From a virus (taxonomy: Duplodnaviria; Heunggongvirae; Uroviricota; Caudoviricetes), in IMG/VR virus record IMGVR_UViG_3300031857_000071, positions 18,271 through 82,270 of that record: a stretch of 64,000 nt of DNA. One strand, given 5' to 3'. A model generated the notes under the pieces. That model was not told the DNA's origin, ran no database searches, and saw nothing but the letters and a program-made list of their open reading frames with translations. The position numbers and the translations under genes are program-made. Every line of letters starts with the position of its first letter. The stretch's first letter is position 1. Positions 10,081 to 46,072 of the stretch are shown here, piece by piece.

Positions 10081-10224
10081 ATGCAACACCATAAGTACAG
10101 TCTTACGGAACTTGAGAATATGATACCGTGGGAACGTGATGTATATGTTGGTATGCTTATACAATATATTGAGGAAGAAAATCAGAAGATTAAACAAAAG
10201 ATAAACGAGAGCAAAATTAGATGA
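10081..10224 (+). CDS. Small hypothetical ORF (47 aa) translationally coupled to the downstream gene
   Basis: ATG...TGA overlapping the ATG of 10221 (ATGA). Below the ORF-track size cutoff. Confidence 0.2.
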   Translation: MQHHKYSLTELENMIPWERDVYVGMLIQYIEEENQKIKQKINESKIR

Positions 10225-12260
10225 ACTACTACGATGCCGCCAGAATAAGAAAAAAAGGCTTCGCTAATTTAATGACAGATAAACTGACTTCAGGTCAGGG
10301 TATTTTTTCATCTAGACGAGATGCTTTGTCTGAAATGTCAAAGGCAAATTCTTTGGCTATGAAAGAACGTTTCGATCCAATGAATATTGCCAAGTTTCTC
10401 ACTGGCGGTAGCACTTTAGCACCAGCAATCGTTGGTCGCCTCACAGGCAGAAGCAAAGAAGATATTGGTTACTTTGCAGGTAAAAGACAATACCAATATA
10501 CACCAAGACAGTCGAACTACTGGCAAAAGTTTAATAGTCCAAATATGGGTGGAGGTGGCTCAAAGAAAGCTACACAGATTCTGGAAAAGATGGTCTCATT
10601 TATGGAAAAGACCAGATATGATGATGTGAAAGAGCAAGATACACTTGATTCTTATAATGAACTCAATGAATACATGAGAGCAGAGAACCACAAAGAAGTG
10701 GTGAATGTATTCAAAGAGGCAATTAAGAACAAACGCAAAGTCATGAAACACATGGCTAAAGAAGCAAAGAAACGTGCGGCTTACGAAAATTCTGTGAGTA
10801 AAAGAACACAAGCGGCGGAACGAAAGGCTCCTGCGCCTTCGGCTCCTTCAGCACCAACACCAGTTCCAGTACCCAGACCACCAGCACCGGCTCCTGCACC
10901 GGCTCCTAGACCACCAGCACCGGCACCTGCACCGGCACCTGCACCGGCACCTGCACCAGCACCAGCACCGGCTCCAGCACCGGCTCCAGCACCTAGACCA
11001 CCAGCACCGGCACCTGCACCGGCTCCAGCACCTAGACCACCAGCACCTGCACCGGCACCTGCACCGGCTCCAGCACCTAGACCACCAGCACCGGCTCCTG
11101 CACCGGCTCCTGCACCGGCTCCAGCACCTAGACCACCAGCACCGGCTCCTGCACCCAGACCACCAGCACCGGCACCCGCACCAGCACCTGCACCGGCTAG
11201 ACCACCTACTGCGGCACCTGCACCCCCAGCACCGGCTAGACCACCTACTGCGGCACCTGCACCTCCAGCACCCGCTAGACCACCTACTGCGGCACCTGCA
11301 CCACCAGTATCAATTCCACCGAGTGCCGCAATAGTTGGTGCCTTTGGGGTTGGAACTGTTGGTGCCGCTATTGCTGAAAAAATGGCCAAAAAAGAATCTG
11401 CCGGAGGTAAACCGGATTCTTATTATATGGCCAACATAGTAAGAGGAGGAACCAAAAGTGACACATCCAATTCATTTAGAATAATAAAAGGAAATATTGA
11501 TGTGACAACTGGCCAACCTTATCCAAAAGATTTGACTGATATGACCATAGCTGAAGTAGTTGAACTTGCCAATAGGAGGAGCCAACATTTTGACAAAGCA
11601 GGAGCCGGAGCGGCTATGGGTAAATATCAATTTATGCCACAAACGCTTGCCGGTAGATACGATAGGAAAACAAACACCTTTTTGCCGGGAGTAGCACAAA
11701 AAGTTTTCGGTCCTTGGGCAATGTATCAACCTTTTTCTAAAGAAAATCAAGAGATAATGCAACAGTTTTTGATGCGGGCAAATGCAAGAGCATTAATGAA
11801 AGATAATTTACCAATAACTGATGCAAATTTGTACATGTTACATTTTTCAGGTAATACAAGCATGGTGAGAAAAATGATGGCCGCAAATGATACTGATAGT
11901 ATGTCCACCATATTATCACCTGCTGCCGTCATAGCGAATAAAACAGTAGCGAATATGACTGTTGGTGAGTATAAAAGAAAAATTTTGAATATTTTTGACT
12001 CCAAAGTTATAACCTATCAGCAACTCACAGAAGGTATTAATGTTCCCACACCAACAGGAACACTTGAAGATTATCAGGCTGGAATGAGACTACAACAAGC
12101 TGAAGAAAAAAGGGCTGAAATGAGGTCAAGATTCCGAAGATCCGAAATACTACAACAAAACGGTGTTATGGTCAATCAAAACAACATTACAAATAGACAA
12201 AGAAATGTGAATGTGAATTCGGCACCTTTACAAGAATTAAATCCAAGAATAGGACACTAA
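10221..12260 (+). CDS. Large virion protein with three parts: a conserved N-terminal domain, a roughly 150-aa Pro-Ala repeat linker, and a C-terminal lytic-transglycosylase-like domain. Candidate hub/tape-measure or ejection protein.
   Basis: PAPAPAP/PRPPAPAPA repeats. SLT-like motif E(VVELANRRSQHFDKAGAGAA)MGKYQFMPQT fits E...GLMQxMPxT. The first 90 aa are paralogous to the next gene. Confidence 0.5.
   Translation: MNYYDAARIRKKGFANLMTDKLTSGQGIFSSRRDALSEMSKANSLAMKERFDPMNIAKFLTGGSTLAPAIVGRLTGRSKEDIGYFAGKRQYQYTPRQSNYWQKFNSPNMGGGGSKKATQILEKMVSFMEKTRYDDVKEQDTLDSYNELNEYMRAENHKEVVNVFKEAIKNKRKVMKHMAKEAKKRAAYENSVSKRTQAAERKAPAPSAPSAPTPVPVPRPPAPAPAPAPRPPAPAPAPAPAPAPAPAPAPAPAPAPAPRPPAPAPAPAPAPRPPAPAPAPAPAPAPRPPAPAPAPAPAPAPAPRPPAPAPAPRPPAPAPAPAPAPARPPTAAPAPPAPARPPTAAPAPPAPARPPTAAPAPPVSIPPSAAIVGAFGVGTVGAAIAEKMAKKESAGGKPDSYYMANIVRGGTKSDTSNSFRIIKGNIDVTTGQPYPKDLTDMTIAEVVELANRRSQHFDKAGAGAAMGKYQFMPQTLAGRYDRKTNTFLPGVAQKVFGPWAMYQPFSKENQEIMQQFLMRANARALMKDNLPITDANLYMLHFSGNTSMVRKMMAANDTDSMSTILSPAAVIANKTVANMTVGEYKRKILNIFDSKVITYQQLTEGINVPTPTGTLEDYQAGMRLQQAEEKRAEMRSRFRRSEILQQNGVMVNQNNITNRQRNVNVNSAPLQELNPRIGH
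10840..11300. repeat. Tandem nucleotide repeat (units like ccagcaccggctcctgcaccggct) encoding the (PA)n/PRPPAPAPA linker
   Basis: Directly visible near-identical 6-30 nt units over about 460 bp. The antisense GA-rich ORF 10781-11389 is an artefact of it. Confidence 0.85.
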
Positions 12261-16774: not shown

Positions 16775-17079
16775 ATGTGTTGAACATGGTGGTTGGTTAT
16801 TCTGTTACGAGGAAACCAACCGAAACCCTAGTCAGCGTTTAGGCTGCCAATGCGAACTTTTCATCGTTTGCGTTTACTTTGATTTAGTTTTTACACCTGC
16901 TCTGGTGAGTTGTCCACTTCTGTACTTGTTGCCCTGTCGAAACCTGGTCATCCCCATCAAAAACACACCCCATTACAGCCCTCAGAGGTTTCTTTCATGT
17001 AAGACATGTGTTTTTGGTGGAGATGGGCGGAATCGAACCGCCGTCCAGAACACTTTTCTAGTTGCTTCATACAACCATA
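16775..17079 (-). ncRNA. ssrA: Circularly permuted (two-piece) tmRNA (ssrA). The acceptor piece is upstream and the coding piece downstream. Tag peptide ANDEKFALAA.
   Basis: Acceptor-piece 3' end ...GGACGGCGGUUCGAUUCCGCCCAUCUCCACCA ends at 17015, with a T-arm and 3' acceptor strand. About 60 nt downstream (5' end at 16955) is GGGGAUGACCAGGUUUCGACAGGG, compare E. coli GGGGCUGAUUCUGGAUUCGACGGG. GGGGAUG pairs with CAUCUCC including a G3-U wobble. Tag ORF GCA AAC GAU GAA AAG UUC GCA UUG GCA GCC UAA at 16839-16871. Confidence 0.8.
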
Positions 17080-17085
17080 GCCTCT

Positions 17086-17114
17086 ATTATAGAGGTTTTT
17101 TATTTAGGTGTCAA
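17086..17114 (-). promoter_or_regulatory. Consensus sigma70-type promoter for the tmRNA precursor
   Basis: Minus strand TTGACA - 17 nt - TATAAT, about 8 nt upstream of the inferred precursor 5' end. Confidence 0.6.
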
Positions 17115-17140
17115 GCGTTTTTGTAGTTTAAATGGTAAAC

Positions 17141-17795: not shown

Positions 17796-18461
17796 TCAAT
17801 ACTGTAGTGCTGTCATATATTTAAATTCAGTTAGGTTTGTGATATCACCATAACCACCAACAGGCATGAGATTAAATGCTAAACTATAACGGGACTTGTT
17901 CGTATCATTCTTCGGAACAAAGTGCGGTAGATGAGATGGAAATATGATGAGCCTACCTTTAGATGCAGGTACAGCAAAATGATAGATAGAAAAATCATTT
18001 TGTATTTTATGATTCTTTTTTGGAATCATCTGAAACATTGCAGAAGTACCTGCATTTTTTTCGAATATTAATGCCGAATTTTCATCATATTCATCGTCAA
18101 AATACAACACACCTGAAATAAAACTATTCGGATGCACATGTGTTTTGTGTTCTTGTGAGTTAGTCTTGTTGTTGACCCACGATAACACATCAACCAAACC
18201 TTCAACTTCAAAACCCATAACTTCTGTTGCAAATTTTTTGGCATTTATCAGAATGTTATTTCTAATTGACGAAAGTTTTTCTAAACGAAGCACTTGCTTA
18301 TTCTCGGTATTTTCACCCCATATATCGCATACCTTTTCTCCACTTGGGAGTAGTTCTTCCACTCTATTTGTTTTTAATGAATACAATTCATCCTGAATTT
18401 CTTTGGTGATCTCCAGGTTTTGTATAAAAATTGGTGTTGGGAAAATAGGAATAACATTCAT
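17796..18461 (-). CDS. 2OG-Fe(II) oxygenase-family protein (cyanophage-type 2OG-FeII_Oxy_5-like)
   Basis: HKTHVHPNSFISGVLYF ... HLPHFV motif. Paralogous to the next gene. Confidence 0.5.
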   Translation of the reverse strand: MNVIPIFPTPIFIQNLEITKEIQDELYSLKTNRVEELLPSGEKVCDIWGENTENKQVLRLEKLSSIRNNILINAKKFATEVMGFEVEGLVDVLSWVNNKTNSQEHKTHVHPNSFISGVLYFDDEYDENSALIFEKNAGTSAMFQMIPKKNHKIQNDFSIYHFAVPASKGRLIIFPSHLPHFVPKNDTNKSRYSLAFNLMPVGGYGDITNLTEFKYMTALQY

Positions 18462-42263: not shown

Positions 42264-42413
42264 TCATACGAATAAATCTCCATAATATTCTTCATCAAAA
42301 GCATCAAAATCCTTTTGTATCCATTCAATAGTATAACCATTAGAAGAATACTCAGAAGCCATTTTCTCCAATTCAGCGAGAGCCATAGAAGGAGAAAGTT
42401 TCTGATTAGCCAT
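42264..42413 (-). CDS. Small hypothetical protein. The track ORF 42264-42575 is trimmed to an internal Met.
   Basis: MANQKLSPSMALAELEKMASEYSSNGYTIEWIQKDFDAFDEEYYGDLFV. The upstream part of the track ORF is low-complexity and lies in the non-coding repeat region. Confidence 0.3.
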   Translation of the reverse strand: MANQKLSPSMALAELEKMASEYSSNGYTIEWIQKDFDAFDEEYYGDLFV

Positions 42414-42621
42414 TAGAGAGAGGTTGGAGCAATGCATAAAGTTATTAGAATCTTTATGTGCGGAGACCTGAATGAATTGGCGGGTGTTTGTGTTTGTCTG
42501 TGTCATGGATGGTATTATAGCGGAGATGGTAGGAATGGCAATAGGGTGGATGGAGGTGTTGCTCAAATACAACATGGAACATGGAATCTTTATAGGAAGA
42601 ACCAGTATGCAATATAGTGCA

Positions 42622-42641
42622 TGTGGATAACCTGTGGATAA
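42622..42641. promoter_or_regulatory. Two tandem perfect DnaA-box 9-mers (TTATCCACA on the minus strand) 11 bp apart
   Basis: Plus strand tgtggataacctgtggataa. Confidence 0.4.
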
Positions 42642-42964
42642 CTTTTTGGAATGTGCATGGAATGTGTAGCGGGACCTTAATTACTGACCAGTCAGTCAGT
42701 ATGTCGCTGGATGTGTCGCTGGCCATCGGCAGTGTGAAGTTCTTATTTAGTCTTAGTTGCTGGCTGTGAGCGCCTGAAATTTTCTCAGAGTGTCTCAGAG
42801 TACCACAGCACGTTCCAGTGGGTTCCAGCACGTTCCAGCATGTCCCTTGACGGTGTGGTAGAGTACCATTCAGAGCAGTGCAGAGGTGCTGGAGTGTGTT
42901 TGGGTGCTTCACGCATCCAGCGGGCAGCCTCTACGTCCATCCCCAGTGTGCTGTTCGAACCATG

Positions 42965-43010
42965 TGTCTATTATAACCGAAAAAACGCCACCTGGCAACC
43001 ACCAGGCGGC
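42965..43010 (-). terminator. Rho-independent terminator whose 3' arm and T-run overlap an early promoter
   Basis: Minus strand GCCGCCTGGTGGTTGCCAGGTGGC + GTTTTTTCGG. Also TTGCCA-N17-TATAAT. Confidence 0.5.
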
Positions 43011-43032
43011 TCACTGTTGTTTCTTTACAACA

Positions 43033-43260
43033 TCATTCTTCCTCAGAGAATCCTTCAGAGAGGACTATCTGGTCCTCATAGTAGTTCCGTTCCTCCTCCA
43101 TGCACAGGTTACCCTCTACCTCGAACACCAGGTCCGTGGCAGTCTTTTCATCACACCCAGTGGTGGACTTCACAAATGCAATAATGTCCTCGAATGCATC
43201 GCCATTGGAGATGCAGGTTTCAATATCCATCAGCAGGTCTTTCATCTTACTCATCATCTT
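43033..43260 (-). CDS. Small acidic hypothetical protein. The start is trimmed to avoid overlap with the upstream gene.
   Basis: MSKMKDLLMDIETCISNGDAFEDIIAFVKSTTGCDEKTATDLVFEVEGNLCMEEERNYYEDQIVLSEGFSEEE. GC-rich codons. Confidence 0.35.
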   Translation of the reverse strand, partial: KMMSKMKDLLMDIETCISNGDAFEDIIAFVKSTTGCDEKTATDLVFEVEGNLCMEEERNYYEDQIVLSEGFSEEE

Positions 43261-43742: not shown

Positions 43743-43798
43743 AATGAATGATTGTATTATACAGGTTCTGGTTGGTTTGGCAACCATTACTTGACCGG
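43743..43798 (-). promoter_or_regulatory. Repeat cassette R1: inverted repeat TTGACC-N5-GGTCAA plus early promoter TTGCCA-N17-TATAAT
   Basis: Plus strand attatacaggttctggttggtttggcaaccattacttgaccggattggtcaac, upstream of the gene starting at 43726. Confidence 0.55.
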
Positions 43799-45915: not shown

Positions 45916-45967
45916 TTAATATGGCACCCAGCCTCCACGTCCACCCCAGTCCTGCTTTCGAATAGGT

Positions 45968-46072
45968 CCATTATACCAGAACCAGCCGGTTTGGCAAGTA
46001 ACCAAAAAGTACTCCATCCTTCCGGTGGGTCATTCCAACGGATGGTTGCCATTTCCGCTGGTTCTGGTATAC
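45968..46072. promoter_or_regulatory. Repeat cassette R6: divergent promoter pair. The minus-strand promoter is CTTGCCA-N17-TATAAT and the plus-strand promoter is TTGCCA-N16-TATACT driving gene 46089.
   Basis: cattataccagaaccagccggtttggcaag ... ggttgccatttccgctggttctggtatact, then RBS AAGGAAA and ATG at 46089. Confidence 0.5.

Follow-up and report, generated by a model that had tools for sequence, protein, structure and literature searches.

In a 64,000-nucleotide (nt) stretch of phage DNA (IMG/VR virus record IMGVR_UViG_3300031857_000071, positions 18,271 to 82,270; hereafter the window), most of the region 42414-43030 reads from its sequence as an early transcription unit that encodes no protein and has promoter/stem-loop cassettes at its borders, and it is a real element. 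Its predicted transcript opens with a conserved motif, and the DNA behind the motif is an array of short tandem repeats that includes a pair of perfect DnaA boxes. Among the readings weighed here, the highest single weight, roughly one chance in three and thus still tentative, falls on an origin-like initiation site, and the support for it lies in the non-coding status of the region, its promoters, the motif, the conservation of the boxes and their enrichment after the motif. All promoters, terminators, transcription and protein binding named below are predictions.

Results

A predicted non-coding early transcription unit

The terminator/promoter module which an earlier note on the same DNA, made from the letters alone, had placed at the head of the region was recovered in both parts, as a hairpin at 43010-42987 and the promoter P1, TTGCCA-17-TATAAT, at 42998-42970, with the -35 hexamer of P1 sitting within the hairpin. 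Transcription from P1 would start at about 42963. The stem-loop is kept in relatives with changes in its stem, and is predicted to terminate the upstream gene of 74 amino acids (aa) and to form the stem-loop half of a PeSL-type cassette. PeSL cassettes, which join a strong sigma-70-like promoter to a stem-loop terminator, recur among the small genes that fill the variable early regions in T4-type phages (PMC2839356). Three modules of the window (43010-42970, 42058-42000 and 45915-45853) fit this description, being sigma-70 consensus promoters fused to stem-loops and repeated in a variable early region. They differ in that PeSL cassettes normally flank small orphan genes, whereas non-coding cargo is flanked here, and in that a second unit (45924-45997) has the motif as its sole cargo.

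Four near-identical sigma-70 promoters (TTGCC[A/T], 16-17 nt, TATAAT) occur on the minus strand at 43783, 42998, 42541 and 42027, and two of the four directly follow stem-loops. The one at 42541, P2, is a second strong promoter within the interval of the earlier note, which had not listed it, and it stands before a conserved 80-aa gene without a family match in Pfam. The ATG of this gene, at 42506, is only 7 nt past the TATAAT of P2, and because of this short distance the gene is predicted to be leaderless. Several early genes (42506 and 45845 on the minus strand of the window; about 4999 in contig L144) likewise have an ATG exactly 7 nt past TATAAT and no Shine-Dalgarno sequence, which suggests that their mRNAs may be leaderless. 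An ATG is likewise found behind P1, at TATAAT + 6, though without a conserved open reading frame (ORF) after it.

The non-coding stretch, given earlier as about 550 bp, is real but measures about 455 bp (about 42962-42507), with 42414-42506 being coding. The opinion that it contains no credible ORF agrees with the pattern of indels. In the near-identical contig L127, a deletion of 20 bp, exactly two CTGGAAC repeat units, shifts and breaks both minus-strand ORFs of 152 and 51 aa, and relatives carry many further indels that are not multiples of three, so that the reading frame is not kept among them. No ORF in the region has a Pfam match, and the indel pattern already refutes the listed ORFs as predicted protein genes.

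A conserved motif at the predicted transcript 5′ end

The first ~45 transcribed nt read GGTTCGAACAGC, a linker of 3-8 nt and then CTGGGGRTGGACG. The pattern matches 11 IMG/VR contigs and at least 120 metagenome contigs, giving 110 distinct instances, many of them close relatives; as the instances come from exact-pattern scans (at least 120 loci), conservation of the pattern bases is circular and the family size is underestimated. Complete flanks were available for 97 instances; in 49 of these, a TATAAT-like -10 hexamer, which often belongs to a full TTGACA-17-TATAAT promoter, precedes the motif start by 6-10 nt, and many other instances are preceded by a conserved GAGAGCGA leader. The carriers are contigs of uncultured phages, mostly from freshwater, whose names suggest mostly lake metagenomes. 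Some contigs (L201 at 13642 and 14144; L215; L228) hold two full motif units ~500 bp apart, each with its own promoter.

The motif includes a small hairpin, the stem of which is just 2-3 bp in promoter-adjacent units. At the pair next to the closing G-C, 57 sequences have U-A (29), A-U (14), C-G (7), U-G (2), G-C (1) or another combination (4), and this pair was judged on bases outside the search pattern, the pattern bases being invariant by construction. Covariation at the hairpin scores 0.397, whereas shuffles give 0.158, none of 500 reaching 0.397, and slid partners give 0.133 at most. The regulatory RNA that the earlier note offered as its alternative to an origin thereby gains support, as the transcript would open with a widely conserved motif and a covarying hairpin.

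Neither the motif nor the region had a relevant match in Rfam, even at E values up to 10 on the short region; the motif had no match in 185,579 bacterial and archaeal genomes, no real match in 50,697 GenBank phage records and no match in the literature. It is thus a candidate new phage RNA or regulatory element of ~45 bases, previously undescribed. A divergent second copy, found by a profile search at about 45962-45924, lies directly after a TATAAT and is kept in relatives; a stem-loop at 45915-45897 and, at once, a promoter at 45880-45853 follow it, leaving a unit of ~70 nt with no other cargo. This arrangement of promoter, motif and stem-loop favours a small RNA as its putative product.

Several other interpretations of the motif were rejected. 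A leaderless peptide from the ATG of ATGGTTCGAAC does not fit because, with a linker varying from 3 to 8 nt, the conserved 3′ block falls into each of the three frames, and an ATG is missing from many copies. No known RNA family matches, and the likeness to a transfer-messenger RNA (tmRNA) or tRNA T-loop is a resemblance with no model match. A pseudoknot or helix GUUCG-UGGAC with CAG-CUG, proposed by alifold, is uninformative since its bases are fixed by the search pattern, and divergent copies speak against it by eye; a CAGC-GCUG helix and a contact of the 3′ block with the loop of a downstream hairpin are, by eye, inconsistent across variants. A four-run G-quadruplex fails as the later G-runs are not conserved. 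Among the matches themselves, those in the GC-rich contigs L280 and L299 look by eye like chance or coding sequence, and that in L029 lies in coding-looking DNA, read as ParB-like from its translation alone. No cultured relative was found at the DNA level, the weak motif matches in Synechococcus and Variovorax phages looking like chance in coding-like sequence.

Tandem DnaA boxes within a dense repeat array

The two perfect tandem DnaA boxes that the earlier note had seen are present on the minus strand, where the sequence TTATCCACAGGTTATCCACA is composed of TTATCCACA-GG-TTATCCACA, two perfect copies of the consensus. The tandem pattern is far beyond chance, being expected 0.01 times per window even when two mismatches are allowed. 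Single boxes are not enriched in the window, either as perfect copies (3 found, 1.04 expected) or with up to one mismatch (24 found, 25 expected). DnaA would bind at these predicted boxes.

The boxes are one module of an array (Table 1). The direct repeats CTGGAAC (three copies), CCAGCGACA and ACTCTGAGA (two copies each), which had been pointed out before, are accompanied by CACATTCCA and TTCCATG, also in two copies each. The inverted repeat reported as CTGAC-CA-GTCAG exists but reads CTGAC-TG-GTCAG (42695-42684); it was read by hand and is unlisted by the repeat scan. The near-palindrome ATGCACTATATTGCAT beside the boxes includes the TATATT of a weak promoter-like site, TCCACA-16-TATATT, and is kept in L138/L139/L140, with two copies in L144. 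Six exact 8-mer tandem repeats (offset 7-12) fall within 42571-42840, compared with ~7 per 64 kb in shuffles, a density ~200 times the expectation, and the spacings are 10, 10, 11, 11 and 12 bp. Only one other spot in the window is equally repeat-dense (six events), at 10650-11300 inside a 679-aa ORF (10221-12260), which has no Pfam match and presumably encodes a repetitive protein.

The several short iterons of the earlier note are heterogeneous modules of 2-3 copies that differ between relatives: the array has five different 2-3 copy repeats, versus the one iteron family of DnaA-dependent theta origins. A spacing of about one helical turn is typical of arrays that line up neighbouring proteins along the same face of the DNA duplex. 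Because of this spacing and the mosaic evolution of the modules described below, the sequence speaks more for binding sites on double-stranded DNA than for a structured RNA. An alifold analysis downstream of the motif found no compensatory pairs that would mark a conserved RNA structure, and the minimum free energy (MFE) z-score of the whole transcript is only -2.2.

Conservation among relatives and population variants

Contigs sharing both flanking genes retain a region of similar length, while the flanking proteins are 74-84% (upstream, 74 aa) and 91-96% (downstream, 67 aa) identical. The conserved blocks are the stem-loop with its promoter, the first ~45 transcribed bases, the DnaA boxes, the TTCCATG pair and P2, and further the CTGGAAC, CTCTGAGA and GCGACA repeats and a TGCAC-TATATT-GCAT element beside the boxes. 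The comparison with related genomes, proposed earlier as a check, thus finds the region kept, and boxes are retained in seven of eight related units in 2-4 copies: two in the window and L138/L139, three in L140 and L144, and four in L136/L135. Diverged relatives thus keep the boxes even though the sequence around them changes, as would be expected of a functional DnaA-binding site, with the boxes probably under selection. In L144, the order of boxes and TATA-palindrome is reversed. The CTGGAAC unit has one copy in L127 and 2-4 in relatives, and the ACTGAC..GTCAGT palindrome and similar modules come and go; on these comparisons, short repeat modules make up the region as an evolving mosaic. Where the flanking genes have more distant homologues (L001-L006, L149-L191), the element is mostly lacking.

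The locus itself is represented by eight contigs, L127-L134 (seven ENA/JGI assemblies and one Logan assembly). Six of them reach the non-coding region, and all six end within it, at the CTGGAAC repeat, the DnaA boxes and elsewhere (window 42435-42870). The variants among these contigs show the 20-bp repeat-unit deletion and, at 42870-42905, clustered substitutions, which makes the region a hotspot of population microdiversity.

Variable cargo behind a constant motif

Across the motif-bearing contigs, 33 of 88 units have two or more DnaA boxes (up to one mismatch) in the 450 nt that follow the motif and 31 have a perfect box, compared with none of 93 upstream and a background of 0.26 boxes per 450 nt; the tallies of downstream boxes, of SlmA-like sites and of clusters include L280 and L299, which were excluded from the alignments. 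In an unbiased k-mer count, TTATCCACA is the top 9-mer downstream of the motif (31/89 units, 90 copies), and TAAGTTAGT is the second commonest (31/89 units). Since the downstream boxes occur in both orientations, they would be sites on double-stranded DNA.

In the largest sister lineage, the unit stands alone and consists of a consensus promoter, the motif, a palindrome, 4-10 boxes in opposed arrays and a terminator, and it sits between divergent and convergent genes, at strand-switch points. A palindrome AAGTTAGT-N6-8-ACTAACTT was seen between the motif and the first boxes in L203 (700-790), L220 (5275-5305) and about 25 others. A conserved protein family of 70-90 aa is encoded on the opposite strand, convergent with the motif unit, in 43 instances (e.g. 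L192, L203, L220; ~250-530 nt after the motif) and a 100-aa family is divergent from it in 25; neither has a Pfam match or a homologue in the window. L116 is a divergent fourth case of the motif with boxes. The exact tandem-box 21-mer GTTATCCACAGGTTATCCACA occurs in at least 120 IMG/VR contigs (L007-L126), of which, among the matches listed, only L116 has the motif, and it is often found inside longer arrays of 11-bp period in several unrelated-looking families. Phage genomes thus widely carry putative tandem DnaA boxes with a spacing of 11 bp, irrespective of the motif. In another phage, L168, a homologue of the 67-aa gene is preceded by a non-coding region of ~600 bp (1540-2150) with ~11 boxes of the type TTGTCCACA in both orientations, including arrays of 9-bp period.

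As defined by experiment, the E. coli SlmA site requires G, T, A and G at positions 1, 2, 4 and 5, together with a purine at position 3 and a pyrimidine at position 6 (PMC3020112). Sites that fit this specificity follow the motif in 13 of 88 units, 29 sites in all, whereas the upstream side has none and 1.57 Mb of other loci has a single one; 2-4 such palindromes (GTAAGTACTTAC and variants) lie 28-165 nt past the motif in L202, L212, L213, L225, L251, L278, L282, L292 and L319. The enrichment comes essentially from one lineage and is at most suggestive. In the window, no SlmA-site array (GT[AG]AG[TC][AG]CT[TC]AC) was found, such arrays belonging to the sister cassettes of other contigs, and the literature searched gave no link between SlmA-type sites and phage genomes. 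In L208, L237, L253 and L268, GTGCGCATAA stands just after the motif, followed by AT-rich near-palindromes; it may resemble the XerC arm of the dif site.

Table 1. Positions of the features in the window
Feature	Position	Strand	Basis or remark
Stem-loop and T-run, GCCGCCTGG-TGGT-TGCCAGGTGGC then GTTTTTT	42987..43010	minus	10 pairs, 7 GC
Promoter P1, early sigma-70-type, TTGCCA-17-TATAAT	42970..42998	minus	11/12 matches
5′ motif, copy 1, N-G[GTTCGAACAG]C-N', 3-8 nt linker, CTGGGGRTGGACG-NNN-RAG	42920..42966	minus	covariance model, 52.5 bits
Patch varying between near-identical population variants	42870..42905	minus	L129, L131 vs window; L204, L211, L221
10-bp tandem repeat with CTGGAAC, 3 copies, spacing 10	42806..42840 (10-mers 42806-42838)		repeat scan
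ACTCTGAGA x2, spacing 10	42782..42801		conserved in relatives
CCAGCGACA x2, spacing 12	42701..42722		repeat scan; conserved in relatives
Palindrome ACTGAC-TG-GTCAGT	42683..42700		in window and L136/L135; absent in L138/L139/L140/L137
CACATTCCA x2, spacing 11	42647..42666		8-mer tandem count
Two perfect DnaA boxes (TTATCCACA), tandem, 11-bp spacing	42622..42641	minus	sequence, repeat scan
Near-palindrome ATGCACTATATTGCAT adjoining box	42607..42622		14 of 16, counted by hand
TTCCATG x2, spacing 7	42572..42586		8-mer tandem count; relatives
Promoter P2, early, TTGCCA-16-TATAAT	42514..42541	minus	strongly conserved in relatives
Conserved 80-aa gene	42264..42506	minus	3-nt indel and synonymous changes in relatives; overlaps low end of the interval
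Second unit: promoter TTGCCA-16-TATAAT (45997-45970) and divergent motif copy (TTCGAAAGCAGGACTGGGGTGGACGTGGAGGCTGGGTGCC)	45924..45997	minus	covariance model, E = 7e-7
Two-piece (permuted) tmRNA, betaproteobacterial type	16781-17128	minus	tag peptide ANDEKFALAA; ARAGORN

The source phage and its genome context

The earlier note had framed the phage by T4; it is not T4 but a large, uncultured, distant T4-like phage from freshwater, and the window has no nucleotide match among the 50,697 GenBank phage records. The window encodes a T4 nrdC.10-like ATPase, ~30% identical to those of Aeromonas and Enterobacter T4-like phages, and a ribonucleotide reductase, and the genes on both sides of the region are on the minus strand. 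ARAGORN reported the tmRNA only, and because it is of the betaproteobacterial type, the tmRNA type alone suggests a betaproteobacterium as the host. The motif-bearing contig L201 likewise has a two-piece tmRNA of this type. A bump of GC skew at 47.3-47.9 kb looks, by eye, like plus-strand coding sequence read in reverse.

Discussion

Based on these findings, we tentatively propose that the unit would act at two layers. At the RNA layer, the P1 transcript would open with the ~45-nt motif and its small hairpin; at the DNA layer, the next ~330 bp would offer short tandem repeats 10-12 bp apart, about one helical turn, with the DnaA-box pair as one module. Host DnaA and other proteins on the remaining repeats would assemble on the phage DNA early in infection, and this assembly together with P1 transcription could produce an origin-like initiation site. 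The unit would then correspond to T4 oriE but be helped in addition by host DnaA, in the manner of plasmid and phage origins that DnaA assists. We favour this reading because the architecture parallels that of T4 oriE and because DnaA-box clusters are classic origin components; transcription, and any role in replication, we infer from the sequence.

T4 oriE requires an early promoter and contains direct repeats of 12 nt at even spacing, whose role is unproven (PMC3016281). The unit shares with it the early region, an early sigma-70 rather than MotA promoter and a cluster of short direct repeats (PMC3016281). It differs in that oriE has one family of 12-nt repeats and no reported DnaA boxes, whereas the early promoter here is joined to heterogeneous 10-12 bp tandem repeats, several of them in 2-3 copies, to boxes and to a 5′ motif. 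No MotA-type middle promoter such as those of T4 oriF/oriG was found, P1 having the full -35/-10 sigma-70 form with no AT-rich element after it. The unit also resembles the ColE1/pBR322-type origin, which has an untranslated promoter-driven transcript with a G-rich start and one or more DnaA boxes a few hundred bp downstream, but it has neither RNA I/RNA II structure nor homology, and after the first 50 nt its transcript would be C-rich and G-poor, for which reason an extended R-loop is not favoured. Past about 42720, where the plus-strand GC skew rises to +0.39, an untranslated RNA of such composition would be a good Rho target, which likewise makes a long R-loop doubtful.

The candidate origin of the earlier note is supported as to a non-coding, conserved, early-promoter-driven unit with retained boxes and is one hypothesis among several; the lack of an AT-rich element and of a skew turning point, and other points, weigh against an origin. 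GC content is 0.41-0.53 across 42350-43100 compared with ~0.38 for the window, with no AT-rich unwinding element and no AT-rich 13-mer-like tract seen beside the boxes. The cumulative GC skew keeps falling across the site, with no turning point or strand switch, and no initiator gene was found nearby, the neighbouring small proteins being without family matches. L137 has other repeats in place of the boxes, and modules are swapped, lost or changed in copy number even between close relatives. The sequences downstream of the motif fall into 29 clusters, of which only three have boxes (the largest lineage, the group of the window and L271), and another cluster carries repeated 12-bp palindromes (GTAAGTACTTAC), SlmA-site-like, in their place. 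SlmA-site palindromes are not known to play a role in initiation, and T4-type phages are not known to require DnaA.

A docking or decoy array, which is possible but less probable than an origin, would titrate or relocate proteins of the host chromosome cycle as phage genomes multiply, DnaA in this phage and a SlmA-like protein in the sister lineage, leading to interference with host replication initiation or division, or to anchoring of the phage DNA. The cargo varies behind a constant promoter-plus-motif head, the box number spans 2 to 10, and the SlmA-specificity sites are confined to the downstream side of the motif, all of which such an array would explain. On the other hand, the window has only two boxes, the SlmA-like sites may be sites for a phage protein, and the promoter and the conserved RNA motif would be left unexplained. 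E. coli datA and DARS are non-origin DnaA-box clusters that act by binding DnaA, with defined box arrangements and an IHF site. A phage precedent is the T5 'injection stop' region, with eight DnaA boxes in pairs 3 bp apart, set inside inverted repeats in the terminal repeat (bioRxiv 10.1101/866236). As here, T5 is a lytic phage in which the first-expressed non-coding DNA, a pre-early repeat region, has many direct repeats and palindromes and conserved paired boxes (bioRxiv 10.1101/866236), although the function of its box region is itself only proposed (bioRxiv 10.1101/866236). The present unit differs from it in having 2-4 direct tandem boxes 2 bp apart after a promoter and motif, and no sequence similarity.

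It is rather unlikely that the boxes serve local transcription control, wherein DnaA would regulate P2 and the weak overlapping promoter-like site, or block the polymerase from P1, and the expression of the downstream leaderless genes would follow the DnaA status of the host. All T4-like relatives have their boxes after the motif and before P2, by eye ~45-100 bp upstream of the -35 of P2, and one box adjoins the conserved TGCAC-TATATT-GCAT element and overlaps the TCCACA-16-TATATT site; in E. coli, DnaA serves as repressor, activator and roadblock. Yet units of the largest sister lineage end in a terminator facing convergent genes, with no downstream gene to regulate, and the other repeat modules would have no explanation. 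Of similarly low probability is a purely RNA gene, a small or medium non-coding RNA defined by its 5′ motif, with the repeats and boxes incidental or structural. The motif stands at predicted transcript 5′ ends in more than 100 contigs, its hairpin covaries beyond shuffles, its conserved block in all three frames leaves no peptide, and its second copy in the window is a stand-alone ~70-nt unit between two promoters. Against this, the RNA downstream of the motif has no conserved structure, the promoter-adjacent stems are very short, and sites at the DNA level are indicated by the period of 10-12 bp and by boxes that work out in either orientation. A small protein gene or functionless sequence is highly improbable: the region does allow ORFs of 152, 51, 61 and 50 aa, but every frame is broken by the 20-bp and other non-triplet indels and none has a family match, which rules them out as genes, and the motif and repeat modules are kept across diverged relatives.

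We also consider it possible, with no more confidence than the docking array, that the cassette is a new phage element, in which a structured 5′ RNA heads variable arrays of binding sites for host chromosome-cycle proteins, capturing or redirecting host machinery. If so, lytic phages would target both replication initiation and division control of the host, through DnaA arrays in this phage and two other lineages and SlmA-like arrays in another, and the 45-nt motif, with more than 100 distinct examples and none in Rfam, GenBank phage records or bacterial genomes, would represent a class of RNA that is new and found in uncultured phages only. Where T4-type phages start replication is still poorly defined, host initiators are not known to take part in it, and the conserved early non-coding unit with its boxes offers a concrete site for testing such a role. 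Since the motif heads DnaA arrays in some lineages and SlmA-like sites in another, this work suggests that phage genomes may include DNA "landing pads" to which cell-cycle proteins of the host would bind.

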